From the NCBI GenBank assembly GCA_963745025.1, contig CAVUWD010000015.1, positions 36,441 through 100,440 of the forward strand: a stretch of 64,000 nucleotides of DNA. The letters run 5' to 3'. How positions within the stretch are numbered: position 1 is the stretch's first letter; each line of letters opens with the position of its first letter. A program made the position numbers and the translations under genes. This stretch comes from an uncultured delta proteobacterium. GTDB taxonomy: Bacteria > Desulfobacterota > Binatia > JACPRU01. Below are positions 28,907 through 54,689 of this stretch, piece by piece. The notes under the pieces are model-generated. The model had not been told where the DNA came from, ran no database searches, and saw only the letters and a program-made list of their open reading frames with translations.

Positions 28907-28996
28907 TTTTCCGCGGGGTTACGTCGCGATTGGCCCTCGCGAGGGCCAAACGTTCCCTCTCTTGCCCAAAGAGCGACGCACGGAGCCCTCCCGAAC

Positions 28997-37074: not shown

Positions 37075-37086
37075 ACGGAGTACCGC

Positions 37087-38099: not shown

Positions 38100-38149
38100 G
38101 TGGCTCCCCGGAACCGGAGGCGCCGGCCTCATCGGCAGCGGGGCGATAC

Positions 38150-38435
38150 CCGCGAGCGTCACCCGTGGCTCGACCCTACCGACACGCGTCCACTTCGCAG
38201 GGCCGGCCCGTTTCCTATCCGATCACGCTGCAGCCGAGGGTGCGCTCCAACGAGCCGCTGGGTGGCGGGCGAGACGATAGGTGACCACTTCCACGTTACC
38301 ATCCCGAGAGACGCCCCCGCTGGACTCTACACCGCCGAGGTCGGTTTGTGGGATACTAGCCGTCCCGCACGGCTGCGCTGCGGCTGGTTCGGCCCTTCCC
38401 ATGCCGACGCGTTCACTCTGCGAGTCGCCGAGTGA
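38150..38435 (+). pseudogene. C-terminal Ig-like domain remnant of a GT-C-type protein
   Basis: PTSRWVAGETIGDHFHVTIPRDAPAGLYTAEVGLWD matches the C-terminus of 38432-41011 (STRFWAADEIV...VP..AADGPYAAEVGVW). Confidence 0.6.
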
Positions 38436-41011
38436 GCTTGGGACTGCGCGCAGCTTGGCGCGACGAGCGTCCATACGTACTGGCGCTCGTCTCGAGCATC
38501 GTCGTCGGGATGGCGATCCGCATCACGCTCGCGTTCGCAGCCCAGGGCAAACACTGGAGCGACAGCGCGACGATCGGGCTAATGGCGATTCACGAGATGC
38601 GGGGCAACTTCTACACGTTCTACTGGGGCCAGGCGTACATGGGATCGCTCGAGTCGCTCGCCACCGTCCCGTTCTTCGTGCTCTTCGGCGTCAGCGACGT
38701 GACGCTGTCGATGGGGCTCCTCCCCTGGTACGTCCTCTTCGCGATCGCGCTCTATCTGGTCGTGCGTCGCTGCGGCGGTCCTCTCGCCGGGGCGATCTCG
38801 GGCTGGCTGCTCGCCTTCGCGCCTCCCTACATCCAGTACCAGCAGTTCATGCCTCGCGGCGATTATCCGGAGACACTCGCTTTCGGCACGGTGCTGCTTT
38901 GGCTGACGCTGCGAGTGACGCACGGCGGTCTGCCCCAGCGCTCGGAGCGTCGCCACCTCTTGGCCATCGGATTGGTCGCCGGGCTCGCGTTTTGGACCAA
39001 CTGGCTCGTGTTCCCTTACTTCGCGGTAGTCGGAGCCTACCTGCTTCTCCACGATTGGCGGCTGCCGCTGCGGCCGGTCATCTTGCCGGTGGTCGCCTGC
39101 TTCTTCCTCGGCAGCTTGCCCTTCTGGGTATACAACATCCGCAACGGCTTCCCCACGTTCTCCTTCGTGGAGAGTCTGCAGGGGACCGAGGGCCAACACG
39201 CGGCGCTAGAATACGCCGTGCGCGGTGCCATCCCCCTCTTGTTCGGCTTCCGCGACCTGGACGAGAAGTTCGCGTTCGGCTGGCCGGGCCGCATGCTCAC
39301 GTGGCTCATGGCGCTCGGGCTGGGCGTGCTGCTGCTCGGCTTGTGGCGGTCCTGGCTGGCGCTCCTCCGCGGGCGCTTGCGCGAGACCCAGCCGGTGATC
39401 TCGCTCCTCCTGTTGATCGTTGCGATGGTGTGGATCTACACGGTCGGTCTCCCTGGCCGCTTCCACGTCGCCCGCTACCTCCTGCCCATCACCACCGCGA
39501 CGTTCGCGCTCACGGCCTTGGCCATCGGCTGGTTGGCGGCGCGGTCCCGCATCCTCGGCGGGGCGGCGCTGGCTCTGCTCATCGGCGTCTACGCGGTGCA
39601 AATCGCGGAGTTTCGCCGGGGCCTCGTCTCCTCGCCGCGCCCAGGAGTCGAGGGACCCGTCGACGAGCTGGCCGAGCATCTCCTGCGCTCCGGCATCCGC
39701 TACGGGTACGCCGACTACGGCGATTCGACTATCACCACCTACCTGACCCGCGACCGGGTCGTTCTCACGGACTTCTCGGGCGAGCGCTACCCGCTCGACG
39801 AGGTCGACTTCCACGACCCGGCCGTGATCGTGCGCGAGAGCGCTGGGACCGCCGACGGGACGCTCGCCTCGCTCCACGCGAGCTTCTCGGCGAGCCACAT
39901 CCCCGGCTACCGGATCTACTGGCCGATCCGTTACGACGGTATTTCGCGCGCACCCTTGGCGAGGCGCGGATGGAAGGTGACGGCGAGCGAGCATGCGGCC
40001 GACGCGCCGTCGATGCTCGACGGCGACCGCTGGACGTACTGGTCGGTGCCCGCCGACGGCAGCTTCCCGACGGTGACGCTCGATCTCGGCGGCTCGCAGA
40101 CCGTGACCGGCATCTTCTTCGACCTCGGCGAACGCAACCGTGACACCTTCGGGAAGCTCCGGATCGAGTCCTCGCTGGGCGGAGGCAACTGGTCGCTCGT
40201 CGAGGATGCGGAATGGGGGTTCCCCGTGCAGTTCGATTCCCGCGGCCAGGTGACCACGGTGCAGAGCGGCGTCCAGTACGTGCTGTTTCCCCCGCTCGTC
40301 GCCCGCGCGTTGCGCCTCACGCGGCTCGAGAGCAACGACGGCTACAACTGGTCGATCGGCGAGCTCGCCGTGCTTGGCCCGGGCTGGGGCGACGTCGCGC
40401 TGCGCCTCCCCGAATTCGCCGACCCCACTCTTCCGGCTCTCGCCGAGCGGCGGCTGCGCTCGCAAACCGAGCGCGAACCTGAAAACGATAGGCCCCTCGT
40501 TGAGCTCCGCCACCTGTATCGATCCCTCGGGGAAACCGCCAAGCTGGCCGACGTCGAGCGCATCGAGGCCGAGCGCTTCCGCCCCCGGGTTTCCCTCGGT
40601 TGGCGCTTCGGAAGCGACCTGAAGCTAGTCGGATACGACTGGCGAGTGCTCGGACCGCGCAGACTGGAGGTGACCTACTATTGGCAGGGGATGCGACGCA
40701 TGGACGGGGAGTACGCGGCATACGTGCACTTCCGCGGTGCCGGCCAGCAGTTCCAGGACGACTACTTGCTCGGATCACCGCTCAGCACGCGGTTCTGGGC
40801 CGCAGACGAGATCGTCAAGCAGCGTCGTGTGATCTCCGTCCCGCACAAAGCCGCCGACGGACCCTACGCTGCCGAGGTCGGCGTCTGGGTGCCTCAGAGC
40901 CGGCGGCACGTTCGGCTCGGATCCCTCGGGCTGCGGGGGCCGCGCACCCGGGCGCTGTTCCGCCTCGAGGTTCGAGGCCCTGAGGTGACGATCGGGAGGC
41001 AAGAGCCGTGA
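38432..41011 (+). CDS. GT-C (ArnT/PMT-like) glycosyltransferase with discoidin (F5/8C)-like and Ig-like C-terminal domains
   Basis: SD.A.IGLMA, YWGQAYMGSLE, about 11 transmembrane segments, AFWTN, WKVTAS...LDGDRWTYWS...LDLG...WSIGEL. Confidence 0.8.
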   Translation: MSLGLRAAWRDERPYVLALVSSIVVGMAIRITLAFAAQGKHWSDSATIGLMAIHEMRGNFYTFYWGQAYMGSLESLATVPFFVLFGVSDVTLSMGLLPWYVLFAIALYLVVRRCGGPLAGAISGWLLAFAPPYIQYQQFMPRGDYPETLAFGTVLLWLTLRVTHGGLPQRSERRHLLAIGLVAGLAFWTNWLVFPYFAVVGAYLLLHDWRLPLRPVILPVVACFFLGSLPFWVYNIRNGFPTFSFVESLQGTEGQHAALEYAVRGAIPLLFGFRDLDEKFAFGWPGRMLTWLMALGLGVLLLGLWRSWLALLRGRLRETQPVISLLLLIVAMVWIYTVGLPGRFHVARYLLPITTATFALTALAIGWLAARSRILGGAALALLIGVYAVQIAEFRRGLVSSPRPGVEGPVDELAEHLLRSGIRYGYADYGDSTITTYLTRDRVVLTDFSGERYPLDEVDFHDPAVIVRESAGTADGTLASLHASFSASHIPGYRIYWPIRYDGISRAPLARRGWKVTASEHAADAPSMLDGDRWTYWSVPADGSFPTVTLDLGGSQTVTGIFFDLGERNRDTFGKLRIESSLGGGNWSLVEDAEWGFPVQFDSRGQVTTVQSGVQYVLFPPLVARALRLTRLESNDGYNWSIGELAVLGPGWGDVALRLPEFADPTLPALAERRLRSQTEREPENDRPLVELRHLYRSLGETAKLADVERIEAERFRPRVSLGWRFGSDLKLVGYDWRVLGPRRLEVTYYWQGMRRMDGEYAAYVHFRGAGQQFQDDYLLGSPLSTRFWAADEIVKQRRVISVPHKAADGPYAAEVGVWVPQSRRHVRLGSLGLRGPRTRALFRLEVRGPEVTIGRQEP

Positions 41012-41057
41012 GCCCGGTCGAGAAGGCTCGTCCATTCATCCCCGTTTACGAGCCGTC

Positions 41058-41354
41058 AAGGACGCCAAGCTCTTTCCCGGCGGAGCGAGAGAGTGGCACT
41101 GGGCTGAGACCGGTACTGCGCACGTGCCCGGAATCCAGCCCTCCGACGTCACCGAGTTGCTGGAGCACGGCGCCACGGTGGTCGTGCTTACCAAGGGTGT
41201 ATACGAGCGGCTTCGGGTCTGCCCCGAGACGCTCAAGCTGCTTAGCGATCGAGGCATAGCCGTTCACGTCCTACAGACCGAGGAAGCCGTCCGAGTCTAC
41301 AATCGGCTGGTCGAGACGGATGGGGTTGGCGGACTCTTTCACTCGACCTGCTGA
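41058..41354 (+). pseudogene. Mth938/AAMDC-like protein, N-terminally truncated
   Basis: KDAKLFPGGAREWHWAETGT.H.PGIQP.DV.ELL...QTEEAV..YN.L...GGLFHSTC. Confidence 0.8.
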
Positions 41355-41522
41355 CCTGAAGAGTAGCCCTCATGCTCGACTCAGTTGTCTACCGGCGATT
41401 GAGGGTTTCACCCTCAACGTCTGTCCGGTAATAAACGGTCGCTCCTCTTTCGCTTCGGTGTCGTTCCAGATTGGAGTGCGCCCCGCGATCACGGCGCCAA
41501 CCTGCGGAAGCAATCGGGAATT

Positions 41523-43088
41523 TCAACCCCGGGCATAGAACTCGAGATCGGGCGAGATGAAGTATCCCGCGAACATCGGATCGAGCCGCCGGTAGAGCTC
41601 GCGATTCAGGAATTCGCCCTCGAACCGGCGCACGAGGTGAAAGCCCGTCTCGCCGCGGCGCAGGCGCTGGTAGGCGGGCTCGAACGCCGGGTGATGGTGG
41701 CGCTGGTGGCGCCAGTAGAGAAGCGAGGTGATCTCGACGAGGTCGAAGTCGTTGCGCTCGTGAAGGCGATCGACCCATGCCTCGCTCACGCCGGTGACGA
41801 CGATCCGCCGGTCGGTCGGAATCGCCATGTACGGACTGAAGCCGCAGGCGAGCAGGCGCTCGCCCGGCTTCATCGTCGTGTCGAGCCACCGCGCCGCTTC
41901 GATCCGCGTGTCGTTCCGCAGGCGCGACGTCGTCGAGAGCGTGAAGAGGCTCGTGTAGCCAAGCGTCACCGCGACCGCCGCGACCGCCGCCGCACGGCGC
42001 CGGCGCGAGGGGTCCTCGAGCCATTCGCCCTGCCAAACGCCCGCAAGCATGGCGCCGACCACCACGACGGGCATCTGATAGCGGAGTGGCGTGAACGTCC
42101 AGCGGCCGAGGATCGCGAAGAAGAGAGCCGCGAACCCGACCACGATCAGCCGTTCGCGTCGTGGGTGACGGAGCGTCCAGAGCGTGCCGGCCGCCGCGCT
42201 CAGGTAGAGCGCAAAGCCAAGGCTGAAGGGGAACCCAGCGAACAGCTCGTAGACGTACTTGTGGTACTGCCATCCCGGAGCCGGCAGGCTGAAGCCGTAG
42301 TGCAGGCTGTGGACGTGCTCGTACTCGGACGCCATCGCCGCGCGGAACTGCGCGAAGTGGAGGAAGCTGAACGGCGTCGCGGCGAAGCACGCCAGCAAAG
42401 CGACCACGCCGAGCGCGAAGAGGCCCGCGATCGTCGAGCGCTCGCCTCGGCCGGAGAGCGCGGCCGCGGCGAGCGGCGCGACCGCGACCAGCGCGGCGGT
42501 ATACTTGCTCGCGACGCCGAGTCCGATGGCGAGCCCCGTCCAGGCGTAGTCCGCCCATCGTCCGTGCGAGAAGAGGCGCAGCGACAGCGCGAGCGCCGCC
42601 ACGATCCAGAACGTCATCACCACGTCGGTCACCGCGAAGTGGCTCTCCCAGACGTGCAGCGGGAGCAGCGCCACCCAGAGGCCGGCGAGCGCCGCGCCGA
42701 GCGTCGAGGCGCCCATCTCCGCCACGACCCAGAACGCCGCCGGGGCGGTCGCCGCACCGAACGCCGCGACGATCGAGCGCGCGACGATATACGACTGCCA
42801 GGTCTCGGAGACGAGCCCGACTCGCGTGGCGAGCCCGTTCGCGATCGCGATCAGGTAGATCAGGAACGAGGGGTAGTTCAGGAACTTCGGATCCGGCTGG
42901 TCGATGGAGATGGCGAGCGCGTGGCTCATCACGTGTTCCATCTCGTCGGGATGGAGGTCGATGCGAGTCGGCGCCCCCCACTGGAGGCCCCAGAATCGAA
43001 ACGCCGCGGCCAGCAGGAAGAGCGCCAACGCCACCCAGCGTTGGTTTCCCGCGGTGCCGGCGCTACGCATCATCGAGCTAGCGTCCAT
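41523..43088 (-). CDS. GT-C (ArnT/GT39/GT83-like) glycosyltransferase
   Basis: RFWGLQWG.P..HPDE, NYPS, SHFAVTDV, GLGVASKY, TPF; multiple transmembrane segments. Confidence 0.85.
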   Translation of the reverse strand: MDASSMMRSAGTAGNQRWVALALFLLAAAFRFWGLQWGAPTRIDLHPDEMEHVMSHALAISIDQPDPKFLNYPSFLIYLIAIANGLATRVGLVSETWQSYIVARSIVAAFGAATAPAAFWVVAEMGASTLGAALAGLWVALLPLHVWESHFAVTDVVMTFWIVAALALSLRLFSHGRWADYAWTGLAIGLGVASKYTAALVAVAPLAAAALSGRGERSTIAGLFALGVVALLACFAATPFSFLHFAQFRAAMASEYEHVHSLHYGFSLPAPGWQYHKYVYELFAGFPFSLGFALYLSAAAGTLWTLRHPRRERLIVVGFAALFFAILGRWTFTPLRYQMPVVVVGAMLAGVWQGEWLEDPSRRRRAAAVAAVAVTLGYTSLFTLSTTSRLRNDTRIEAARWLDTTMKPGERLLACGFSPYMAIPTDRRIVVTGVSEAWVDRLHERNDFDLVEITSLLYWRHQRHHHPAFEPAYQRLRRGETGFHLVRRFEGEFLNRELYRRLDPMFAGYFISPDLEFYARG

Positions 43089-43413
43089 GGAGAGCGCACG
43101 TCACCTCTGCGACACGGTCTCGGATGGATACGAGCGCCCCGCAGGCAAGCGCCGTGCGCTCTTCGGCGCCCTGCTCTCGCTCTGCGGCCTGCTCTTCCCT
43201 GCGCTCGCGGCGGAGGCCGCGACCCACGTGATCGGCTATCACCCGCCGGTCTTGCTCCCGGACTCGGTCCGCGCGCAGTACCAGACCCTGCCCGACGCCC
43301 CCTTCGTCCCAAAGTGGTATCGAGACCTTCGGGTCCATATCTCAAACGCGCCATTCCCAGGGGCTCCGCACCGATACCGATGTAGATGTTACAGGCCACT
43401 AGTCGCTTTCTAA
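43087..43413 (+). pseudogene. N-terminal fragment of a membrane-anchored protein (SGNH-associated-like)
   Basis: KRRALFGALLSLCGLLFPALAAEA anchor followed by early termination. Confidence 0.3.
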
Positions 43414-43457
43414 GGTAGGAGCTCGAGGCCGCCTCCTGTTTCATCCAGCCCGCGGGA

Positions 43458-44429
43458 TCAACCCGCCGGTCGCCGCCCGACCACCTGCGTGCTCGGCTTC
43501 GTCCGCCGCGCGACGACCGTGAACATCGGCATCGGACGACCGCTGTGCTGTTGGCTATGAAGGGCCACGCGACTGTCCTCGAAACCTAGAATGCCGAGAA
43601 GCTCCCGGACGACGTGCGGGCTCAGCTGCCACCAAGCGTCCTTCGGCTCGCGGCGCCGATAGTCGGGCAGAAGCGTCAGGATCGGCAGCGCTGCCATGCG
43701 CTCGCCATACTGCCGCAGGTGCTCCTCAAACTGGCGTAGCCAGACTTCGTTTTTCCAGAGCGGATCGCCGCAGATTCGCTGCGCGAGCCGCAACACGTGC
43801 CTCCGCCAGCCGGCGATGGCGGGCAGCCTTGGCGCCGGCGGGGGCAGCGTCACCGGCGGCATCCAGAAGGGCTCCGTGACGATCACCGTCTCGCGCACCA
43901 TACGGAGCGCACTCGCCAACGCTAGAAACGGATCGCGGAGGTGAAGGAGGATGCAGCCGAACATGGCGACGTCCACCGTACCGATGGCTCCGGGAACGTC
44001 GTAAACGTCGCCGTAGACCACGCGGGCGGACGACTGGAACGCGCGATGGCAGAGCCACCAGCCGTTGTTCACGAGGTGGATAAGCGAGCTGTACTCCGCC
44101 GCCATGCGGCGGAGGTCATCATCGGGAAACACTACGACGTTCTGCAGGTGCGCGTGCTCGGGCGAGAGATCGTAGGCGACAACGTCCGCCCCTTGCCTTT
44201 CCATGTGGAAGCACACGAAGCCGCTCGCCGTACCGAGCTCGAGTACTCGCTTGCCGCCGAGGGGCACGTGGCCAAGATAGTCTCCGATCGCCGCGCGGAG
44301 GTCCCACGGACCTTCGACGAGCCCGTACCCCGGAACCTCGATCGTGTGGTAGAAGAAGCAGTCCTCCAGCCGCGTCACGACGCGCGGGGCTGCGTATGGC
44401 GCTTGGCCGGCTAAGAGGCTTTCGCTCAT
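43458..44429 (-). CDS. Class I SAM-dependent methyltransferase
   Basis: CFFYHTIEVPG, GKRVLELGTASGF, ILLHLRDPF.AL. Confidence 0.85.
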   Translation of the reverse strand: MSESLLAGQAPYAAPRVVTRLEDCFFYHTIEVPGYGLVEGPWDLRAAIGDYLGHVPLGGKRVLELGTASGFVCFHMERQGADVVAYDLSPEHAHLQNVVVFPDDDLRRMAAEYSSLIHLVNNGWWLCHRAFQSSARVVYGDVYDVPGAIGTVDVAMFGCILLHLRDPFLALASALRMVRETVIVTEPFWMPPVTLPPPAPRLPAIAGWRRHVLRLAQRICGDPLWKNEVWLRQFEEHLRQYGERMAALPILTLLPDYRRREPKDAWWQLSPHVVRELLGILGFEDSRVALHSQQHSGRPMPMFTVVARRTKPSTQVVGRRPAG

Positions 44430-44804
44430 CGCGTATTTGCGCGGCCGTCAAAGCGCACCGGTCGCTCGAGGTCAAGTTGACCTCGGGACTCATTTCCGTC
44501 TTCTTCTCGGCGAACGACTTTGTCGGGCGTTGGTCGCTCTGCTCGATGCGCATCGGCTTCGACCTCACCCTGCTCGCCGGCGCCTCCGTTCATCTGATTT
44601 CGATGCTCGCCTGGCCGTACTTGCAATCGTCAGCCTGGCCGATTGCCTCTGGCAGTCCAAAGCCCTTTGGGTTGAGCGATGCGTTCACCCTCCAGAGCGT
44701 GCGGCGACCGCTACCGAGTTTGAACCACGTGGTTCAAACTCGGGCTCTACGTAGGCCGAAGTGGGACGATCCGAGCAAGAAAACCCTTAGAAATTCGCAC
44801 CTAC

Positions 44805-44833
44805 TCGAGGGTTCGAATCCCTTCTGCTCCAAC
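44805..44833 (+). other. tRNA-Ala-like 3' fragment (att-core-like) within the island 1 right arm
   Basis: TCGAGGGTTCGAATCCCTTCTGCTCCA is a T arm plus acceptor 3' strand with U70 (G3:U70 Ala identity). Confidence 0.6.
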
Positions 44834-45017
44834 CTCGCCGATGCCTTAGAGCTTTGGAGTGCCCTCAGGCGAGAAAGGGTTCGGTTTTTTCGCTGCGTCG
44901 GCAGACGATGGATCCGGTGCTTGATCTGTAGTTTGGCCCTCGAGGGCTAAGCTACCCCTGAACAGCCACATCCAGCATCATCGGCGGCGAAATTCTCTTG
45001 ATTTTCCGCGGTCGGCT

Positions 45018-45046
45018 GTGGGTTCGACTCCCATCCATCTCCGCCA
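45018..45046 (+). repeat. tRNA-Sec 3' duplication (junction of island 1 and island 2, attP-like)
   Basis: GTGGGTTCGACTCCCATCCATCTCCGCCA, identical to 28878-28906. Confidence 0.95.
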
Positions 45047-45149
45047 TTTTCCGTCGGGGTTACGTGGCGTTTGGCCCTCGCGAGGGCCAAACGAGGGCCC
45101 AAGGTTCCCTTTTTTGCCTGAAGAGCGGTGCACCGAGCCCTCTCGAACC

Positions 45150-45290
45150 ACGCTCCGGATCGCCGAGCCGCTCGGCCTCCTCGAAGCTCTTGAGCCGGGC
45201 GAGCTTCGCCCGGCTCATTACGGTGGCTACCGCCCCGAAGCTCACCCCGAGGCTGCGCCATGTGAGTTCGCTCGGCGGGCAAGTCGCAAC
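45150..45290 (-). pseudogene. IS21 IstA N-terminal HTH fragment
   Basis: RSLGVSFGAVATVMSRAKLARLKSFEEAERLGD resembles IstA N-termini. Confidence 0.5.
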
Positions 45291-45496
45291 GCCGCATGTG
45301 GCCAAGCGGGCTCCCACCTCGATGCGCCGCGACGACGATCGCCTCGGGAGGGCTCGTAGGCAAAATGCGGCCGCACAATGGCTAGGCGACTTCTGGGACT
45401 TTGTTCCGGCTCAGAAACTGAGCCAAGGCTAGAGAAAATGTCTGGAGTTTGGGAGGTTGGGAGGACGTCGCACCTGAGGGTGAGTGCTCAGGGCGG

Positions 45497-45545
45497 ATCA
45501 CCTATGTTCCCGGTTCAATGTGTTACCCATGTTCCCGGTCGCAAC
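45497..45545 (+). mobile_element. IS481-like terminal repeat remnant
   Basis: Tandem (T)CACCTATGTTCCCGGT ... TGTTACCCATGTTCCCGGT, as seen at IS481-family ends. Confidence 0.55.
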
Positions 45546-45687
45546 CGCCCCGTTCCACGCGATGCCTCACCCATTGCTCGGCGCCGGGCCGTGACGCTCC
45601 CGGAACGAGCGGTGCTCTGCGTCTGGCCCGTCTCGTTCAGCCGCTACGCCGAGGTCGACTGGGTCGAGATCTCGCACTCGCTCGTCG

Positions 45688-47793
45688 GTGATTGACGCCG
45701 CGATGCTCGCAAAAGACGATCTCGCCGGTCTGCCGGGTCCCGCGCTGCTCCTCGCCGGAGGCGTCGCGGTGCTCATAGGAGGCTTCGGCGCGACCGCGTC
45801 GATCACCGGGATCGCCTGGGGCGCCCTTGCCGCGGCCGCGGGCGCCGCGCTCGTTGCCGCTAGCGTCCGGCGCGGGCGCGCGCCCTCGGATGCCGTCTGG
45901 ATCGCCGCGGGAGCGATTGCGCTCGCGTTCGTCGCGTTCTCGGAATCGAGCGCGCGGACGTTCGCGCACCTGAACGCGCGCTCGGTGCGCGGGGCCTGGC
46001 CCTACCTCGCGGGAGGCGGCCTTCTCGTGGCGCACTGGTTCGGGCGCGATCCCGATCGGCGTGGCTGGGTCCTGTTCGCCGCCGTTCAACTCTGGCTCGT
46101 GCTCACCTTCCACGACGCCACCGGCGGCGCGCTCGTCACCTCCGACGACCTGCCGTCGTTCCTCTACCGCCTGCATCTCGAGCGCGACGCGTTCCCGCAC
46201 CTCGTCTTCTGGAACCCGGAGTGGAACGGCGGCTACGCCAGCTACGAGCTCGTCGCGACCGGCGCGATCAGCTTCTTCCTGCTTGCATCGCCGTTCCTCG
46301 CGCTCGGTGAACTCGTCGATACGTTCTCGGTCGCGCTCCCGCACGTGTACTTCGTCGTGCTCCCGTGGAGCTACTACCTTGGGCTTCGAGCGTTCGGTGT
46401 CGCCGCCGGGGCGGCCGCTCTTGGCGGCATCGCATCGCTCGCGCCGACCACGCTGCTATTCCTCTACGCGCTCCACTTCGGCCTGCCGCCGTTCGTGATC
46501 TCCTGCTACTTCGCGGTCGTTGCGACCGGCCTCTTCGCGCACGCGTTTCTCGTCGGCCGGACCGATCTCGCTGGTCTCGTCGCGCTCGTCGCCGCAACGA
46601 GCTTCGTGCTCCTCTGGCCGCTCGGCGCGCTGATCCTGCTGCCGGTGATCGGCAGCGCGGCGCTCGCCGCGCGGCGGTTCAAGTCGGCAGACTGGAGGCG
46701 CGCAAGCGCGGTCGTGGCCGCCCTTCTCGCGCTCCACCTGCCCTGGGTCTACTGGCTCGCGATCTACGGCGACTCGCGGCAGCATCTGGCGCGCCAGGCG
46801 AGCCCGATTCTCGGCGGCGTAGATTGGCCGGGGACCACGCTCGCGATCGGCCGGACGCTCGAGCAGTTGAACCCGGTCGTCGCCGCGTTCGCCCCGGTAG
46901 GCGCCGTCCTAATGCTCCGCTGGCCGCCGGGACCGAAGCGAGCCGCCGGGGCCCTCCTCGTGGCACTTGCGGCCTGGAATTTCGTGATCGGCATCTTCGC
47001 GAACCAGATCCGTACGGACGTCGGCCTGGAGCGCTTCGCGATTCCGGCGAGCCTATTTCTCGCCGCGCTCGCGACGGTCGCGTTCGACCGCCTCCTCGAG
47101 TACGGCGCATCCTGGATCCGGACGGCGATTCTCGGCACTGTCGTCGCCGTGCTCGGGGCGAGCGTCGCCGGCGCCGCCTCCTTCTACCGGAACGAGGGTA
47201 TCTATGGGTACGAAACCTCGTCGCCGGCGCTCGAGCGCATGGTCGACGCGATCCGTACGCATTGCGACCCCGAGCGCCGGGTGCTCGTTCCCGGCATCTC
47301 GGTGCACTGGTTCGGCGGCGGCCACATGGCGCCCCTGCCGCTGCTCACCGGCCGAAGCTTCGTCGGCAACGACTTCTACCACCGCCGCGACTTTCGCGAC
47401 GCCGTGCCGAGGAAGTTCCAGAGCGGCGAAGCCTTCCGCCACTTCCTCGACCTCTGGAACGTCGGCTGCGTCCTGAACCACCTGCCGACCTGGGCCGAGA
47501 CGCTCGCGGCGAGGCCCGATCTCGCTGCGGTCGCGGACGAGGGCGGTATCACGCTCTACGCCGTACCCGGGGCGTCGAACCGGTTCCTGCGGGGCTCGGG
47601 CCGCGTCGAGGAACGGCCCGGAGCGCTCGTCGTCGAGACCGGGGACTCGGAGGTCGTGATCAAATATCGCTGGTCGCCGGCACTGCGCACCGATCCGCCA
47701 GTGCCGATCGCAGGGGAGCGGATCTACGGCGACGTTTCGTTCATCCGACTTCGCCCCGGCGGGCACCAGCGCGTGGAGATCACACTCCGATGA
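45688..47793 (+). CDS. Polytopic membrane protein, GT-C/YfhO-like
   Basis: SDDLPSF...WNPEWNGGY loop, many transmembrane segments, periplasmic C-terminal domain (ERRVLVPG, FLDLWNVG.V). Confidence 0.7.
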   Translation: MIDAAMLAKDDLAGLPGPALLLAGGVAVLIGGFGATASITGIAWGALAAAAGAALVAASVRRGRAPSDAVWIAAGAIALAFVAFSESSARTFAHLNARSVRGAWPYLAGGGLLVAHWFGRDPDRRGWVLFAAVQLWLVLTFHDATGGALVTSDDLPSFLYRLHLERDAFPHLVFWNPEWNGGYASYELVATGAISFFLLASPFLALGELVDTFSVALPHVYFVVLPWSYYLGLRAFGVAAGAAALGGIASLAPTTLLFLYALHFGLPPFVISCYFAVVATGLFAHAFLVGRTDLAGLVALVAATSFVLLWPLGALILLPVIGSAALAARRFKSADWRRASAVVAALLALHLPWVYWLAIYGDSRQHLARQASPILGGVDWPGTTLAIGRTLEQLNPVVAAFAPVGAVLMLRWPPGPKRAAGALLVALAAWNFVIGIFANQIRTDVGLERFAIPASLFLAALATVAFDRLLEYGASWIRTAILGTVVAVLGASVAGAASFYRNEGIYGYETSSPALERMVDAIRTHCDPERRVLVPGISVHWFGGGHMAPLPLLTGRSFVGNDFYHRRDFRDAVPRKFQSGEAFRHFLDLWNVGCVLNHLPTWAETLAARPDLAAVADEGGITLYAVPGASNRFLRGSGRVEERPGALVVETGDSEVVIKYRWSPALRTDPPVPIAGERIYGDVSFIRLRPGGHQRVEITLR

Positions 47794-49724
47794 GCGCGCG
47801 ATGGCTGACCGGGGAGTCTGCGAGAGCTCCTTGGCTCGCCCTAGCCGCGGTGGTCGTGGTGTTCGCCGCGGCGCACCTCGACCTCGGCGCGATGGACAGC
47901 TTTCGAACGACCTGGGAGGCGGTCGCCTCCGGCGCCGAGCGCATCCCCGCAAGCGGCCAGGTGGCGATCTGGGAGGTGCCCCGCGACGTCGTGGTCGCCG
48001 AGCCGGCCACGGTTCTCCACCTCGCGGAGCGCGTGGGCTTCGCCGGGTCGGCGTCCTTCTGGCTGCTCGCCGCCGCGCTCGGGGTCGTCGGGGCCGCCGG
48101 CGCGTTCGCCATCGGGCTCGACCTCGGGCTGGCGCCGCCCACCGCCGGTCTCGCGGCCGCCGCCGCGGGATCGCTCTTCCTCGCTTCCGGACAGGGCCTC
48201 TGGGGAACGCTCGCCGCGGCGCCGCTCATCTGGGTCGTGCGTGGCGCCGTCGGCGGCCGCGGTCTCGCCCTCCCGATCGCGGTCGTGGCGCTCGGCGTGC
48301 TCTCGCGCCCGGGAACGCTCCTCGCCGTGCCGGTGCTCGTCGCCGGGATCCTCGCACGCGGTACGACGTCGACGGTGGCGCTCTCGCTCGCGCTCACGCT
48401 CGGTTTTGCGATTCCGCCCAACGAAGTCGACTGGGCGCGCTTCCTCCGCCTCGACGCCGGTCACTACTTCGCCTACGGCGCGCCGTACGGGCTTCCGGAC
48501 CGCGGCTACCGCGCGACGCTCGCCGCCTCGATTGGGGCCGTGCGGGGCGACGGGATCGCGCTCGCCGCCAGCGTCGCTGCGTGGGGCGCGGCTGCGGTCG
48601 GAGCCGTGCGCACCGGGCGACGCGGATGCGCGTTCTTCGTCGCGGCTGCCGCCTTCGCCGCACTCGTGACCCATCCGCCGGGTCGCCTCCACGAGTCGGC
48701 GTCGTCGCCCGCCGCGTTCCTCGCAACGATCGCTCCGTCGCTCCAGGTCTACGACCTCGCGCGGATCGGCGGCTCGATCGCCGCGCTGCTCCTGCCGCCG
48801 CTCGCGGCGCGCGGGATCCGGAGGACGCTCGCCGCCGCCCTCGCGATGCTCGCGCTCGTCGCCCTCGGCTGGCGCGGTGGGAACGAGGCGGGAACCGGCG
48901 TCGAGCCGATCGACCGGCAGCTCGCCGAGATGATCGCGGCGAACCCGGGCCGCGTGCTCGTGCTGCCGCTCGGGGTCGCGTCGGACGGCGCGTGGCAGAG
49001 GGCAATCCCCCCCGGGACCGGGCTCGCGAACGGATCGCAGGAGCTGCTCGCACGGAACGCGCCGATCCTAGCGCGCGAGTTCGCGCTCGCCGATGTCGCG
49101 AGCCTGAAGGAACTCGCCGGCAGGCTCCACGTCGACCGCGTGCTCTTGCCGCGCGGCTGGACGTGGGAGCGGGGGCAGGTGGTCGGCGCGGGCGGGGGAC
49201 GGCTGCTCGTTGGGCTGCCGCAGCGCCAGCCTGCGAAGGCTCCGAAGCCGCTCGAGTGCCTCCCGACCACTGGTTGGAAGGCGACCTCGAGCGTCGGCAA
49301 TCCGAGCGTGTCGATCCCGGAGCGCGCGATCGACCGCGACGTCGACACCCGCTGGGGAACCGGAGCCCCGCAAGAGCCCGGCTTCTTCTACGAGATCGAC
49401 CTCGGCGGCGAATACCGGCTCGACCGCCTGCGCATCGACTTCACAGGCTGGCGGCGCGACTTCCCGCGCGGCTTCCGCGTGCTCGTCAGCCAGGACGACG
49501 GCTCGGTCGCCGTCGTCGCCGAGCGCGATCCTTACTTGGGCGAGCTCGCCTGGGGGCTCGACGGCTCGTTCCCATACGACGACGGCGCTCAGGGCGGCCG
49601 GATCGAGATGGGTCTCGGGCGCACCCGGGGGCACCGCCTCAGGATCGAGCTCACGCGCGGCGCGCGCTTTTACGACTGGTCGATCGGCGAGCTCTGCCTC
49701 GCCGGCGAACGGATCGAGCCGTGA
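47790..49724 (+). CDS. Polytopic membrane protein (GT-C-like) with a C-terminal discoidin domain
   Basis: ATGA overlap, many transmembrane segments, GRVLVLP, WKATSS...AIDRDVDTRWGTG.PQ.PG..EIDLG...DFPRG...DWSIGEL. Confidence 0.75.
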   Translation: MSARWLTGESARAPWLALAAVVVVFAAAHLDLGAMDSFRTTWEAVASGAERIPASGQVAIWEVPRDVVVAEPATVLHLAERVGFAGSASFWLLAAALGVVGAAGAFAIGLDLGLAPPTAGLAAAAAGSLFLASGQGLWGTLAAAPLIWVVRGAVGGRGLALPIAVVALGVLSRPGTLLAVPVLVAGILARGTTSTVALSLALTLGFAIPPNEVDWARFLRLDAGHYFAYGAPYGLPDRGYRATLAASIGAVRGDGIALAASVAAWGAAAVGAVRTGRRGCAFFVAAAAFAALVTHPPGRLHESASSPAAFLATIAPSLQVYDLARIGGSIAALLLPPLAARGIRRTLAAALAMLALVALGWRGGNEAGTGVEPIDRQLAEMIAANPGRVLVLPLGVASDGAWQRAIPPGTGLANGSQELLARNAPILAREFALADVASLKELAGRLHVDRVLLPRGWTWERGQVVGAGGGRLLVGLPQRQPAKAPKPLECLPTTGWKATSSVGNPSVSIPERAIDRDVDTRWGTGAPQEPGFFYEIDLGGEYRLDRLRIDFTGWRRDFPRGFRVLVSQDDGSVAVVAERDPYLGELAWGLDGSFPYDDGAQGGRIEMGLGRTRGHRLRIELTRGARFYDWSIGELCLAGERIEP

Positions 49725-51670
49725 GCGCGCGCGCCCGCACGCTCGCCGTCGTCGCGGCGGCTGTCGCGGTCGGCCTCGCATACCGGCTACTCGTGCTCCG
49801 TGGCCTGTTGGGCAGGCTCCGCGGCGACCACGCGGTGGTCGCGCTCATGGCGAAGCACATCACCGAGGGCCATCACTACATCTTCTACTGGGGCCAAAAC
49901 TACATGGGCTCGCTCGAGCCCTACACCATCGCGGCGCTCGTGCGGCTCTTCGGGCTTTCGGACGCGGTTGTGATGACCGGCCCGCTCCTCTGGGGCCTCG
50001 TCCACCTGCTCACGTTCTATCCCCTCGGCCGCCTACTCTATGACAGGGCGGTCGGCGCGGTGACCCTGGTTGCAGCCGCACTCGCACCGCCGCTACTAGC
50101 GCTGTGGCACGTGGAGCCGCGGGGCGGCTACGCGGAAGGTCTCGCCCTCGGGCAGCTCGCGCTCGTGATCGGGATCTGGCTCGCGCGCGACCGCCCGCGC
50201 GACTGGGGCACCGGGGCGGCGCTCGCGCTCGGCGTCGTGGCTGGTCTTGGTTTCTGGACGAACCTCCTGGTCGTCGACTATCTGGTCCCGGCGTGCGTTT
50301 TGCTCTTGTCGCGCGATCCGAGCGCGCCGCTCCGGCGCCACACCTGGGTAGCGCTCGCCGGCTTCGGCCTGGGCAGCCTGCCGCTCTGGGTGCACACCGT
50401 CGCACAGGGCTTCTCGGCGTTTGCGATCATCGGCGGTCGGGACGGCCATGTGTCGGTCGCGAGGAATGCGCTTCACCTCTGCTCGCAAGAGGGGCCGGTT
50501 GTGCTCGGCGTCGCGCGGCTCGACGGCTTCGGGGGTCTCGTCGGCGGATCTGCAGGAATCGCCGCCGCTGCAATCATGGTCGCGGGGATCGGCTGGAGCA
50601 CATGGCGAGCGCGCCACGGCCTCCTCGACCTCGTCCGCCTGAGCCCCACGGCGCCGGGCGGGGAAATCTGCGTCCTATTGCTAGCGACCGTCCTCTGCCT
50701 CTACCTGCCGACGCACTTCGCGACGTGGAACGCCCCCCGTTATCTCCTGCCGGCGTACGCGGGCATTCTGCCGCTCCTCGCCGCGGCCGGCGTCGACCTG
50801 TGGCGCCGCTCGCGGCTCGCGGCGACGCTCGCAACGCTGTTCGTCGCGGGCGTGGTCAGCGCGGGCGCTCGGGCATATCTCGTAGCTCTCGCGGCACCGG
50901 ATGTCTATGCAGACCGTCTCGGCCGGGTTCTGCAGCTCCTCGCTACCGAGCGAGTGCACCAGGGCTTCGCCGACTACGACGAGGCGTTCCTCCTTACCTA
51001 CCGGTCGAACGAGCGCTCGTTGATGCTCGAACGAGAGATGCACCGCTACCCCCACGAGGAGATCGCCGACTGGAGGCCCGACGCGGTGCTCGCCCGACGC
51101 GAGTTCGCGGGGGCCCTGCAGGACGCGTTCACAGCGCTCGATTGCGCGTTCGAGCACCGCGACGTCGGCACCTACACGCTCTTCTACCGGATCCACCCGA
51201 GGCACCAGACCGCGCCGATCGCCGACCGATCGGCGTGGACCGCGACTGCGAGTGATGCGCCGGAGAACGCGCACTTCGCGATCGACGGCGACCTCCAAAC
51301 CCGCTGGGGTTCGGCTCGGCCTCAATCGCCCGGCATCTGGTTCGAAGTCGACCTCGCCGGCGAGACCGAGGTCGGCGGCGTCGTGCTCCGCTCGGGACGC
51401 TTCGGTCACGATACGCCGCGTGCGATCCGGGTCGAGACCCGCGCCGAGGATGGCGTCTGGAGCCCAGCGGTCGCCCTCGACACGCCCGCTGTCGGCCTCG
51501 TGCTCTCGAACGGAGCGATCGATCTCCGGAGCGAGGCGACGATCGAGATCGGGTTCTCGCCCCGTGCGGCGCGCGCGATCCGGATCTCGCTCGCGGCCGC
51601 CGACCGAAAGTGGGACTGGTCGATCGCCGAGCTCGCGGTGAAGGAAGCGCAGCCGGCAGCGGCACGATGA
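49721..51670 (+). CDS. GT-C (ArnT/PMT-like) glycosyltransferase with a C-terminal discoidin domain
   Basis: GDHAVVALMA, YWGQNYMGSLE, GFWTN, PRYLLP, AIDGDLQTRWGS..PQ.PG.WFEVDL...DWSIAEL. Paralog of 38432-41011. Confidence 0.8.
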   Translation: MSARARTLAVVAAAVAVGLAYRLLVLRGLLGRLRGDHAVVALMAKHITEGHHYIFYWGQNYMGSLEPYTIAALVRLFGLSDAVVMTGPLLWGLVHLLTFYPLGRLLYDRAVGAVTLVAAALAPPLLALWHVEPRGGYAEGLALGQLALVIGIWLARDRPRDWGTGAALALGVVAGLGFWTNLLVVDYLVPACVLLLSRDPSAPLRRHTWVALAGFGLGSLPLWVHTVAQGFSAFAIIGGRDGHVSVARNALHLCSQEGPVVLGVARLDGFGGLVGGSAGIAAAAIMVAGIGWSTWRARHGLLDLVRLSPTAPGGEICVLLLATVLCLYLPTHFATWNAPRYLLPAYAGILPLLAAAGVDLWRRSRLAATLATLFVAGVVSAGARAYLVALAAPDVYADRLGRVLQLLATERVHQGFADYDEAFLLTYRSNERSLMLEREMHRYPHEEIADWRPDAVLARREFAGALQDAFTALDCAFEHRDVGTYTLFYRIHPRHQTAPIADRSAWTATASDAPENAHFAIDGDLQTRWGSARPQSPGIWFEVDLAGETEVGGVVLRSGRFGHDTPRAIRVETRAEDGVWSPAVALDTPAVGLVLSNGAIDLRSEATIEIGFSPRAARAIRISLAAADRKWDWSIAELAVKEAQPAAAR

Positions 51671-51883
51671 GCAAGCGTGCGTGGAAGAGCCCGACGCACG
51701 AAGCCCAGAAGACGCACAGTTCGATCCAGAGAAGGAAAAACCCCCGCGGGCCAAGGCCAGGAAGCGGGCCAGTCTCGTGCGGAATCTTGGCGATCAGGAT
51801 TCGCTGCGTCGCAGCTCTCGCCGGCTTACCGTTGCCTGGCCCATGTGGGCCAAACTCGGGCTCCGAAGCGGCCGATACGGCAC

Positions 51884-51912
51884 GTTGGAGCAGAAGGAAT
51901 TCGAGCCCTCGA
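51884..51912 (-). other. Inverted tRNA-Ala-like 3' fragment within the island 2 right arm
   Basis: Reverse complement TCGAGGGCTCGAATTCCTTCTGCTCCAAC, 27/29 identical to 44805-44833. Confidence 0.65.
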
Positions 51913-52108
51913 TCGAAGAAGCGCCCCGATTCCTTACGGCTTTGGGGTCCCCTCGGGAGACGAAGCTTCCGGTCTTTTCGCCGCGTCGGCGCACGAGGGA
52001 TTCGGTGCGTAATCTTGAGTTTGGCCCTCGAGGGCTAACCTATCCACTGAAGAGCCACATCCAGCATCATCTGCGGCGAAATTCTCTAGATTTTCCGCAG
52101 TCGGCTCC

Positions 52109-52135
52109 GGGTTCGACTCCCATCCATCTCCGCCA
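52109..52135 (+). repeat. tRNA-Sec 3' duplication (attR of the tandem array)
   Basis: GGGTTCGACTCCCATCCATCTCCGCCA. The downstream sequence diverges from the island left arms. Confidence 0.92.
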
Positions 52136-52224
52136 TTTTTCGCGGAAATTCGAGTGGTCGATAGACCCCGAGGAGGTCCAAAGTGTACCTCTTCGCGCCG
52201 AATCGCGAAGAGTACCGAACCCTC

Positions 52225-53234: not shown

Positions 53235-54689
<1,455 letters not shown>

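Follow-up and report, generated by a model that had tools for sequence, protein, structure and literature searches.

The stretch of DNA that we analysed (the window, 64,000 nucleotides) lies on a 100-kb contig, C15, of the host genome, G000, and it holds a tandem array of two islands at the gene for tRNA-Sec. The features of the array are collected in Table 1, where P denotes the left arm and P′ the right arm of the Sec-type site. In window coordinates, junction 1, the internal junction of the array, is the composite region at 44714-45155, and junction 2 spans 51837-52139. The other tRNA-bearing loci that we compared are on contigs C14, C7 and C18 of the host genome and in relatives G001, G002, G005, G006 and G007, and the bacterial family was sampled through 8 genomes (Binatia-type MAGs). 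The G+C content of the islands is ordinary. Twenty sequencing runs match parts of the window, each with less than half of its words, and there is no RNA run among those listed.

Table 1. Features of the tRNA-Sec island array and its two junctions (window coordinates)
Feature	Position	Strand	Basis
tRNA-Sec, intact, anticodon TCA, array head	28812..28906	+	ARAGORN; Rfam RF01852, 76.5 bits vs gathering score 47
Sec right arm (P′), from latest integrated island, in place of native trailer	28907..29005	+	repeats at 45051-45155 and on C18
Island 1 cargo	29006..44713		Pfam; BLAST of IS region
Ala-type left-arm hairpin, perfect 30-bp palindrome	44714..44743		palindrome scan
Ala-type left arm, conserved part	44744..44804	+	module alignments; outside flanks unrelated
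Ala core, exact last 27 nt of host tRNA-Ala(CGC), to discriminator base	44805..44831	+	27/27 identity
Spacer, Ala core to Sec left arm	44832..44881	+	homologous to junction 2 counterpart from ~44838 on
Sec-type left arm (P)	44882..45017	+	88% identity with 51970-52106; weaker relative on C18
Sec core, displaced tRNA-Sec 3′ fragment, T-stem to 3′ end	45018..45050	+	33/33 identity with 28878-28910
Sec right arm (P′) of older island 2	45051..45155	+	94% identity with C18 copy
Island 2	45156..51836		701-aa protein; 1289-aa PMT_2/F5_F8-type-C protein
Variant Ala-type hairpin TGGCCCATGTGGGCCA and first half of arm	51837..51883	+	repeat comparison
Ala core, inverted	51886..51912	-	25/27 identity
Sec left arm, copy 2	51970..52108	+	repeat comparison; hairpin 52018-52041
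Sec core, terminal copy	52109..52139	+	repeat comparison; native tRNA-Sec trailer comes next (array end)

The full tRNA-Sec gene at the head of the array is followed downstream by two 3′ fragments of itself (45018-45050 and 52109-52139), both of which begin at the T-stem and are oriented, like the gene, on the plus strand. The segment of the gene that the first fragment repeats, 28878-28910, runs from the T-stem through the 3′ end plus 4 bases. tRNA-Sec has been restored by island DNA and its native flank displaced to the far end of the array, where the native trailer is found only behind the last Sec fragment; position 28906 is followed instead by the repeated right arm, within which there is a hairpin at 28927-28952. 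The trailer 3′ of 52139 (TTTTTCGCGGAAAT...) resembles the sequence directly behind tRNA-Sec in G001 and G007. Measured from core to next core, the islands are ~16.1 kb and ~7.1 kb long, which is within the Islander range of 2-200 kb. The Sec repeat extends over ~130 bp at ~88% identity, and the Sec arms recur at junction 1, at junction 2 and on C18. The tRNA-Sec locus of G001 holds a different island of ~5 kb with a diverged Sec fragment at its end, and at that of G007 a second Sec core was not found within the 20 kb read. The Sec right-arm palindrome gave 0 matches in the genome contig collection, so the Sec-type arms are known only from the host genome.

Island 1 carries a sulfatase, two phosphodiesterase paralogues, PMT-type glycosyltransferases, a methyltransferase and a broken DDE transposase, and it is a mosaic of genes that occur elsewhere in relatives. 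The transposase at 29094-30192 was considered as the mobiliser of the island and dropped, since it is a single-copy, split remnant with HTH_32 and rve_3 domains. Within island 2, positions 45515-51672 are 94% identical to DNA of the same-genus relative G001, where the island has Ala-type ends only; in the host genome its ends are Sec-type. The islets that are bounded by Ala modules (see below) are small and carry toxin-antitoxin, defence and metabolic genes. Tiny islets often have one toxin-antitoxin pair (RES-Xre, 1.7 kb; TacA-GNAT, 1.4 kb), an islet with HicAB and a primase-helicase measures 3.2 kb, and islets can hold several genes on both strands.

A reading made earlier from the sequence only had listed five pieces between 44714 and 45092 in the composite junction, namely a perfect palindrome, a tRNA-Ala-like fragment, a further palindrome, a tRNA-Sec core and a last palindrome, and all five are where it placed them. 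It had also asked whether the host's tRNA-Ala genes end in the sequence of the fragment, and tRNA-Ala(CGC) does: TCGAGGGTTCGAATCCCTTCTGCTCCA (44805-44831) is identical at 27 of 27 positions to the 3′ end of that gene at C14:231448-231520. Both cores of the junction, Ala and Sec, are genuine 3′ fragments of host tRNA genes, so the condition under which the earlier reading would have fallen (no matching host tRNA or tmRNA, and homologous arms elsewhere without the fragment) does not hold. The other two tRNA-Ala genes are less similar: aligned without gaps to 31 nt around the fragment, they reach at best 25 (GGC) and 22 (TGC). When up to 3 mismatches are allowed, the Ala 27-mer has two sites in the window, one at 44805 (+) and one at 51886-51912 (-, 2 mismatches), and 100 of 100 shuffles gave no match. 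The two cores share GGGTTCGAMTCCC, as had been noted; this string does not stand as a specific signal, being T-stem/T-loop consensus of the GGTTCGA/GGTTCAA type that is present in most of the tRNA tails compared.

An Ala piece lies beside the Sec left arm at the second junction (51837-52139) too, so the composite belongs to the right end of the island lineage and is not a one-off. By hand count, the Ala arms of the two junctions are ~67% alike, and the adjoining Sec arm is 85-88% alike. An inverted copy in L026 (17152-17194) matches the piece at 51837-51883 with 88% identity across 43 nt, and in that relative it lies directly behind an ORF of 136 aa (L026 16733-17143). The Ala core at junction 2 is itself inverted, and the serial-integration scheme set out below does not account for this orientation.

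The Ala module is made up of the palindrome, ~60 bases of arm and the Ala core, in all ~116 bases with sharp bounds, of which only the first 24-30 nt are palindromic and the remainder is asymmetric. In the copy at junction 1, the palindrome (44714-44743) consists of 15-nt arms that are 100% complementary with zero spacer. Among 23 module copies, symmetric compensatory changes in the hairpin amount to 12 cells against 4.1 expected, a value that 0 of 500 shuffles reached. As for the arm being what is left of the 5′ portion of tRNA-Ala, the one correspondence, judged by eye, is the anticodon-loop hexamer TTCGCA, which aligns with the arm in a single module subtype.

The same palindromic motif had been thought to precede each core. 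The sequences in fact differ (the Ala palindrome is GAACCACGTGGTTC and the Sec palindromes are GGCCCTCG(CG)AGGGCC), and what remains of the idea is a shared frame, GTTTG...CAAAC, at near-equal spacing, since by hand count the distance from palindrome centre to GGGTTCG is 80.5 nt in the Ala site and 78.5 nt in the Sec site. In the Sec left arm, 44931-44950 forms an imperfect hairpin, and GGCCCTCGAGGGC at 44935-44947 is a perfect palindrome; in the right arm of island 2, 45068-45093 is a perfect 26-bp palindrome. The right arms contain a second hairpin 3′ of the T-loop, at +60 and +70 nt. L066 has an Ala site that is complete, from the left arm through the core to a right arm bearing the second hairpin, and the Ala right arm recurs on C14 and C7. 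The paired hairpins, one in either arm, presumably have a structural role, bind accessory proteins, or serve as insulators in place of the tRNA trailer. A search for intrinsic terminators over 44300-45800 returned 2 sites against 1.7 expected, neither of which is a long palindrome, as these have no T tract. Directly 3′ of the Sec right-arm palindrome, at 45095-45116, there is a small hairpin that does have a T tract.

The earlier reading had suggested that the same arms be sought at tRNA-Ala loci of relatives, and arm and core are indeed found there downstream of tRNA-Ala(CGC). The Ala module is present in 7 of the 8 genomes of the bacterial family and on 19 metagenome contigs from soil or wetland. 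A search of 393 other genomes of the class yielded no copy, and viral contigs gave 0 matches for the Ala hairpin-arm pattern and 0 for the Sec right-arm palindrome. On every contig that has both (4/4: C14 of G000, C36 of G002, C14 of G007, and L054), the module is 3′ of tRNA-Ala(CGC) in the same orientation. The host genome has 4 copies of the hairpin with the motif AAA[C/G/T]TCGGRCTC, plus the variant CAATCTCGGGCTC at C14:247207, a derivative of the full site seen in L066 from which 502 bp have been deleted. Three of these five copies are downstream of tRNA-Ala(CGC) and 2 are in the Sec array, and all are co-oriented with the tRNA.

Across genera, the module is 81-92% identical while the flanks cannot be aligned, and the flanks of the 19 genome copies and of the modules on the 19 metagenome contigs are unrelated on both sides. 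The core is present on 14 of those metagenome contigs, cut by the contig end on 2, and truncated or deleted in 3. Often only a few bases separate the upstream stop codon from the start of the module. The Ala array is headed in G000, G001 and G007 by larC (Ni_insertion), dksA and then tRNA-Ala(CGC), and in G002 by larC before the tRNA gene, with no dksA ORF seen. At the other end, selO borders the final module in G000, G006 and two metagenome contigs, so we take selO to be the ancestral flank. In G005, whose tRNA-Ala(CGC) was considered as a candidate empty site, the DNA downstream of the gene is unrelated and has no selO in the 1.5 kb available.

Six-frame searches with PF00589, PF13356 and PF14659 gave no match on C15, so the integrase gene that Islander looks for in each island is absent from both, and PF13356 and PF14659 gave no match on C14. 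The host genome has 24 matches to PF00589, none of them on C15 or C7; C14 has a single match, 113 kb away from the Ala array, C18 has a single match, 59 kb away from the Sec-like site, and there is none within 100 kb of the Ala array heads. Among the PF00589 matches listed for 5 relatives, none is near a module, the least distant being a remnant of 36 residues that lies 1.2 kb upstream of tRNA-Sec in G001. The serine recombinase family PF00239 has no match near any module. The 61 metagenome ORFs scanned include 0 integrases, and an all-against-all BLASTP of 49 unannotated module-neighbour proteins revealed no shared family, pairing only island-2 orthologues and two metagenome near-duplicates. 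PHROGs and lenient Pfam searches of the ORFs beside the junctions and the C18 site turned up nothing beyond a weak match to a DDE transposase and one HTH antitoxin, and Pfam scans of the islands detected no integrase, relaxase or conjugation family. Elsewhere in the host genome, integrase-bearing islands occupy tRNA-Leu(CAG), tRNA-Met and tRNA-Arg(CCT), and repeat-bounded stretches without a PF00589 match occur at tRNA-Ala(GGC), tRNA-Leu(CAA) and tRNA-Gly(GCC). No excision or empty-site joint was seen. The contigs of 4 runs that cover parts of 43500-53500 are short and of low depth, and none joins across an island.

We consider it probable that these sites are integrase-less attachment scars of two sister island families, one of Ala type and one of Sec type, that nested or serial integration brought together. 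The order of the array is tRNA-Sec with a right arm, island 1, left arm/Sec core/right arm, island 2, left arm/Sec core, and trailer. Such an order is the signature of elements whose attP measures ~250 bp and which integrate serially and site-specifically in the T-arm/acceptor region of a tRNA gene, a step that we infer from what is known of tDNA-targeting tyrosine integrases. To the left of the Sec left arm, both junctions carry the right-end piece of the sister family (hairpin, arm and 3′ end of tRNA-Ala(CGC)), which in the bacterial family normally accumulates behind tRNA-Ala(CGC). The composite most likely originated when Ala-type island DNA ended up inside a Sec-type element, possibly by integration into an Ala core carried beside the Sec attP or possibly because a segment of an Ala array was captured, and it would then have been passed to both Sec islands. 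The integrase genes may have been lost or may act from elsewhere, which would leave integrase-less, CIME-like islands and scars. Several observations weigh against this reading: the lack of a recombinase near any copy, the lack of an excision or empty-site joint, the ordinary G+C content of the islands, the mosaic make-up of island 1, a conservation of the module higher than one would expect of dead scars, and the inverted Ala core at junction 2. The sequence-only reading had seen in the composite a dual-target site or a landing pad, which is possible, or a record of target switching, which is hinted at by just the common layout of the two site families and the ends of island 2; the junction region could just as well be a passive scar of islands that integrated serially or into one another.

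It is unlikely, in our judgement, that the system is an active, cassette-like one, in which a recombinase acting in trans would use the Ala module as a live site like integron attC, islets would shuffle at any Ala core, and the Ala copy beside the Sec attP would be a landing pad through which cargo moves between two tRNA loci. Such activity would agree with the module being the sole conserved feature at >25 islet boundaries, with the tiny islets and their single toxin-antitoxin pairs, and with a hairpin symmetry that is kept through compensatory changes. Two congeners are 94% identical in island 2 but only 81% in the module copy that precedes it, and this decoupling of module from cargo, along with a conservation of the module above that expected of a dead scar, hints at ongoing activity or exchange. 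The Ala-type ends of island 2 in G001 as opposed to its Sec-type ends in the host, and the lower likeness of the Ala arms than of the Sec arm between junctions, point the same way. However, the searches gave no candidate recombinase, viral contigs are without a module match, and several module copies are plainly in decay. Moreover, island 1 has no second Ala core (attL): with as many as 3 mismatches allowed, the window yields just two such cores, and that of junction 2 is inverted. Multi-gene, both-strand islets are also unlike integron cassettes. In an extended form that we rate as decidedly unlikely, Binatia-type bacteria would have two-tier trans-integrase cassettes, where islets with toxin-antitoxin, defence or cell-envelope genes, each ending in the 116-nt module, load at any Ala core, and where Sec islands carry an Ala landing pad, so that cargo would shuttle between tRNA-Ala(CGC) and tRNA-Sec, as island 2 appears to do between congeners.

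Site-specific integration would not be needed at all if homologous recombination or segmental duplication had spread the repeats, in which case the hairpins and tRNA 3′ ends would be portable patches of homology or fragments of duplicated tRNA loci; this we hold to be very unlikely. The host genome does have many orphan tRNA 3′ fragments (9 for tRNA-Thr(CGT)), a Thr fragment lies ~120 nt from an Ala core on C7, the repeats are long, as the Sec repeat illustrates, and no integrase was found. Yet the repeats span the T-stem to the tRNA 3′ end, as integrase identity blocks do, the arms differ from the tRNA flanks, the native trailer has moved to the array end, and on all four contigs that have both, array and tRNA point the same way.

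It is barely plausible that the module works as RNA, be it a structured ncRNA or a tRNA-like 3′ element such as a signal for processing or stability where operons end, rather than as a DNA recombination site. It has a conserved hairpin with covariation, an intact T-arm and a folding z-score of -2.4, its start is often near an upstream stop codon, and RNAalifold pairs GGGC after the hairpin with GCUC of the acceptor strand in an invariant 4-bp helix; this proposed acceptor helix, however, never varies and so has no support from covariation. ARAGORN calls no tRNA or tmRNA in the module, either in the window, where tRNA-Sec is its one call, or at 20 module-bearing loci, Rfam at the gathering threshold finds tRNA-Sec only in the whole window, and a permissive Rfam scan of 44600-45250 returns T-arm matches only, at 10-21 bits. 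For the module, nothing passes E=0.01 in Rfam except two T-arm matches of 10-12 bits. There is no promoter-like site, the long palindromes without T tract are not terminator-like, and the tRNA-Ala(CGC) arrays and the displaced trailer are left unexplained. A dispersed repeat of the REP/MITE type is rejected, since the five host copies are all co-oriented with tRNA and occur in Ala or Sec arrays only.

If the modules are scars only, they give a well-mapped example of how islands accrete and decay behind two tRNA genes, here in an uncultured and poorly known soil lineage, and island finders that require an integrase would miss all these arrays. Should the modules still be in use, they would constitute a family-wide recombination site of ~116 nt with a sister site for tRNA-Sec, and the recombinase would be a target for discovery. 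They would also provide an exchange route for toxin-antitoxin and defence islets, as well as a natural case of one cargo with two attachment systems, which bears on how integrases change target.

The tRNA-Sec gene, selC, is a hot spot for islands in enterobacteria. In the Islander paper (PMC4383910), an attP of ~250 bp contains a tDNA fragment, tandem arrays are known, and an integrase gene is required for each tandem member. The array in the window is like those arrays in its intact tRNA-Sec, two co-oriented 3′ fragments, T-stem/acceptor crossover region and displaced trailer, as well as in its islands of 16 kb and 7 kb and its arms of ~100-135 bp on each side of the core. It is unlike them in that both islands are without an integrase gene and a heterologous tRNA-Ala end-piece lies beside the Sec left arm at both junctions. 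CIMEs and site-specific accretion are described for ICESt1/ICESt3-type elements of Streptococcus thermophilus in PMC5704250, where CIMEs are, as here, att-flanked islands without integration genes in tandem at one target. Each island in the window has arms and cores at both ends, with no integration or transfer genes in Pfam scans. The S. thermophilus CIMEs are decayed ICEs or IMEs at the 3′ ends of protein genes, in Firmicutes, with a known helper ICE; a CIME can by definition be mobilized in cis by an incoming element with the same att site. Here, in contrast, tRNA genes serve as targets, site families of two different specificities are interleaved, and no helper element was found.

The ssrA islands of Dehalococcoides reportedly sit serially and co-oriented behind the tmRNA gene, with a repeat of the 3′ end of that gene closing each island, and are said to carry their own recombinase. 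The arrangement of serial, co-oriented islands behind one small-RNA gene is alike, and the difference is that none of the islands here has a recombinase. Integron arrays are alike by resemblance only, in that a short site-like module is common to unrelated small units, many of them toxin-antitoxin, that stand in one orientation behind a fixed start. The attC-type site of integrons is an imperfect inverted repeat over the whole site, whereas the module here is palindromic only at its beginning and ends in a tRNA 3′ fragment, the units are multi-gene and on both strands, and there is no IntI at the array head.

Reading the sequence of 44400-45400, we found at junction 1 (~44714-45155) all of the pieces that the sequence-only reading had named, in the order it had given them (see the table). 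That reading had proposed comparing the tRNA-Ala-like fragment with the ends of the host's tRNA-Ala genes, and 44805-44831 is identical at 27/27 positions to the last 27 bases of tRNA-Ala(CGC), whose gene is at C14:231448-231520 of the same genome as the window (52 tRNA genes by ARAGORN in a 5.65-Mb, 20-contig assembly). Allowing up to 3 mismatches, this 27-mer occurs twice in the window and not at all in 100 dinucleotide-preserving shuffles; the second occurrence, at junction 2, is inverted and has 2 mismatches. The Sec core at 45018-45050 is identical to 28878-28910, which runs from the T-stem to the 3′ end of tRNA-Sec. The motif GGGTTCGAMTCCC, noted earlier as common to both cores, is indeed present in both, but it carries no information because it belongs to the T-stem/T-loop region, which is near-identical in most tRNA tails of the genome. 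We conclude that the junctions are probably att sites of two related element families at the 3′ ends of tRNA-Sec and tRNA-Ala(CGC), whose islands are now integrase-less, with the Ala piece coming from an older nested or serial integration or from capture.

Features of the tandem Sec array and its two composite junctions
Feature	Coordinates	Remark
tRNA-Sec + right arm	tRNA 28812-28906	start of array; only tRNA in window
Island 1	29.0-44.7 kb	
Ala module, junction 1	44714-44831	followed by 50 nt, then Sec left arm
Palindrome	44714-44743	perfect, 30 bp
Left arm + core + right arm	44882-45155	between islands 1 and 2
Degenerate palindrome copy	44931-44950	copy of 45068-45093
Palindrome	45068-45093	perfect, 26 bp
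Island 2	45.2-51.8 kb	
Variant hairpin + half-arm, junction 2	51837-51883	same place as Ala module of junction 1
Inverted Ala core, junction 2	51886-51912	followed by 57 nt, then Sec left arm
Left arm + core	51970-52139	then native trailer

The tRNA-Sec 3′ repeat extends beyond the tRNA to ~130 bp (28878 to ~29005 versus 45018 to ~45155, ~88% identity); the second copy carries an insertion of 11 bp. A third Sec core is located at 52109-52139, and the 137 bp before it match 44882-45017 at 88% identity. A fourth copy, complete with core and both arms, is found on another contig (C18:98952-99192). The sequence 3′ of the third core (TTTTTCGCGGAAATTCGAG...) resembles the direct tRNA-Sec trailer of the same-genus relative G001 and of G007, a further genome of the family, while the intact tRNA-Sec here is followed by the repeated arm instead of that trailer. 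This layout is classic for successive integrations into the 3′ part of a tRNA gene, and from the order of the array, the region singled out by the sequence-only reading therefore corresponds to the inner junction between two islands in tandem. At its own tRNA-Sec, G001 has an unrelated ~5 kb island that ends in a diverged Sec fragment and then the same kind of trailer; no second Sec core was found in the 20 kb read at the tRNA-Sec locus of G007.

The G+C content of island 1 is ordinary, and the island is a mosaic whose genes are located elsewhere in relatives. At its left end, directly after the Sec right arm, a DDE transposase that is single-copy in the genome is split into HTH_32 and rve_3 parts in different frames (29094-30192). 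Two adjacent type I phosphodiesterase/nucleotide pyrophosphatase paralogues (32975-37074), ~70% identical over repeats 1937 bp apart, adjoin a sulfatase and PMT-type glycosyltransferases with F5/8 type C domains, and island 2 consists of a related glycosyltransferase set. Directly 3′ of the Sec right-arm palindrome, a small hairpin and then a T tract (GGGCCCAAGGTTC CCTTTTTTGC, 45095-45116) are partly created by the 11-bp insertion, which is absent from the copy after the intact tRNA.

The Ala piece belongs to a module that is found well beyond the window. A BLAST search of the genome with 44400-45200 gave 3 further copies of the palindrome and following sequence downstream of tRNA-Ala(CGC) on C14 (+3.2, +15.8 and +28.2 kb), all in the orientation of the tRNA gene, the first ending in a 24-nt Ala core. 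The sequence-only reading had suggested searching for the same arms at tRNA-Ala loci of relatives, and on 4/4 contigs holding both, the module is downstream of and co-oriented with tRNA-Ala(CGC). In alignments, the module is 116-120 nt long with sharp bounds, from the hairpin start to the discriminator base of the tRNA fragment, and its flanks are unrelated between copies on both sides except for a T/C-rich, weakly conserved stretch after the core. All 8 genomes of the family and order in the reference set have a match at E<=0.001, but in G005 the tRNA-Ala(CGC) gene of that genome is the sole match; at E<=1e-8 the arm or module proper is present in 7/8 family genomes, this one included, and in none of 393 genomes of 19 other families (class sample n=401; only the 7 positive). 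An exact-pattern scan located the module on 19 metagenome contigs and 10 GTDB genome stretches, whose record titles are Candidatus Binatia or uncultured delta proteobacterium MAGs plus one Gemmatimonadales-labelled MAG (L066), and a pattern scan of viral contigs did not find it. The bin label of L066 (uncultured Gemmatimonadales) is at odds with the rest of this distribution; its aligned parts are 97% identical to C14:246061-247730.

The last module of the array adjoins selO in this genome, G006 and two metagenome contigs, and dksA precedes tRNA-Ala(CGC) here and in G001, G005, G007 and the module-bearing contig L054, with larC also present before the tRNA in all of these but G005. The ancestral order would therefore be dksA, tRNA-Ala(CGC), selO, with all between inserted. 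The inter-module stretches, or islets, range from 1.4 to >12 kb and include HicAB with an AEP (TOTE-type) primase-helicase, TacA with a GNAT toxin, RES-Xre, PIN, BrnT-CopG and HepT/HEPN as well as ordinary metabolic genes. Directly after tRNA-Ala(CGC), the region 2539-5627 of L001 (C14:229001-248000) encodes a 795-aa fusion of a TOTE-type archaeo-eukaryotic primase domain (PF22548, E=5.5e-94) and an SF2 helicase and then a HicB/HicA pair; this 3.2-kb islet as a whole is bounded by the tRNA gene and the first Ala module. In L066 the internal junction is complete, comprising left arm, core, and a right arm that includes a second hairpin, and C7 has, behind an Ala core, a repeat of the right arm that follows the genuine tRNA-Ala(CGC) on C14. 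The copy at C14:247207 derives from the L066 form, which keeps an undeleted module, by a 502-bp deletion, and some module copies are therefore decaying. Among 19 metagenome copies, the core is in place in 14, the contig end cuts off 2, and 3 are truncated or deleted, two of these three being on contigs with a transposase gene.

From ~44838 onward, junctions 1 and 2 are 85-88% identical, whereas their Ala parts are ~67% alike (hand count on the alignment) and also differ by a ~27-nt deletion and the inversion. No Ala piece accompanies the Sec site on C18. Island 2 (45515-51672) has a counterpart of 94% identity in G001, where it is preceded, 52 nt off, by an Ala module of another subtype, which shares 81% identity with that of the window; no Sec arm is present there, and ~1 kb past the island the same variant half-arm occurs, inverted, just after a 136-aa ORF. 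The same cargo is therefore bounded by Ala-type ends in one of the two congeneric species and flanked by Sec-type sites in the other. This is not the only place with a composite: an orphan tRNA-Thr(CGT) fragment on C7 is ~120 nt from an Ala core with its right arm, and the genome has many orphan tRNA fragments. The 3′ 28-45 nt of tRNA-Thr(CGT) occur as orphan copies nine times, on C8, C7, C19, C14 and C15 outside the window, each with its own conserved arms containing direct repeats (for example GGTAGCAA and GTGTGCCA). Two of the nine are ~190 nt away from complete genes for P4-like integrases (C8:50208-51299 and C8:100343-101416), neither of which is at a tRNA gene.

The Ala and Sec sites share a plan. 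In both, a hairpin framed by GTTTG...CAAAC is centred 80.5 nt (Ala) or 78.5 nt (Sec) before the T-arm GGGTTCG, a second hairpin of the same kind follows 60-70 nt after it, and the hairpin variants GAACCACGTGGTTC, GGCCCATGTGGGCC, GCCCACATGGGC and GGCCCTCGAGGGCC bridge the two families. The site totals of ~220-270 bp agree with the ~250-bp attP of tyrosine integrases described in the Islander paper (PMC4383910). In 23 aligned Ala modules, palindrome symmetry is kept by two-sided changes at 4/15 pairs (12 cells versus 4.1 expected, reached in 0/500 shuffles), which is supportive but not proof because the module copies are related to one another. A terminator scan found no T tract following the long palindromes and did not call them terminator-like.

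A six-frame PF00589 search of the genome gave 24 matches, none on C15 (the window's contig) or C7; the lone C14 match lies 113 kb away from the Ala array, and the lone C18 match lies 59 kb away from the Sec-like site. Among the PF00589 matches listed for five relatives, none is near a module, and searches with PF13356, PF14659 and PF00239 gave no match near any module. None of 61 metagenome ORFs scanned is an integrase, and no unannotated protein is common to the 49 module neighbours compared. The only integrase trace near the loci studied is a 36-residue C-terminal tyrosine integrase remnant 1.2 kb upstream (5′ side) of the G001 tRNA-Sec (G001:C24:18940-19047; L036, a stretch of that contig, ~6940-7047). 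Ordinary tRNA-adjacent integrases are present in this genome at tRNA-Leu(CAG), tRNA-Met and tRNA-Arg(CCT), and repeat-bounded stretches with no PF00589 match also at tRNA-Ala(GGC), tRNA-Leu(CAA) and tRNA-Gly(GCC). Public sequencing runs provided no usable evidence about excision.

The main rival is that the modules are still active, with a recombinase acting in trans and the Ala core beside the Sec attP serving as a landing pad. It would fit that the module is highly conserved while its flanks cannot be aligned, that its identity is decoupled from that of the cargo, and that island 2 leads a double life, but there is no enzyme, no second Ala core within island 1 and no excision product, and we consider it unlikely. 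Spread by homologous recombination alone fits the data less well and is quite improbable, and a structured-RNA function of the module, also a poorer fit, is the least probable of all. We prefer site-specific integration, in which two related element families would have inserted into the 3′ ends of tRNA-Sec and tRNA-Ala(CGC), and the islands would since have become integrase-less, the condition ascribed to CIMEs in PMC5704250. The Ala piece beside the Sec left arm would have arrived before both Sec islands, by nested or serial integration or by capture of Ala-array DNA. The repeats with their bounds and orientation, the displacement of the trailer, the module found throughout the family and the lack of integrases are direct observations; the enzyme class, the sequence of events and any part played by the hairpins are inferred.

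Compared with known systems, the array fails the criteria for integrons and matches no known RNA family. It agrees with Islander in every criterion tested except the integrase that Islander requires, and by definition it also qualifies as CIMEs in tandem accretion. Tandem islands in tDNA are already well known, as are remnants that have no integrase. What is new is the heterologous Ala/Sec composite repeated at two junctions, the lineage-wide ~116-nt module as the sole constant feature of many islet boundaries, and the two-hairpin plan common to two sites of different tRNA specificity.
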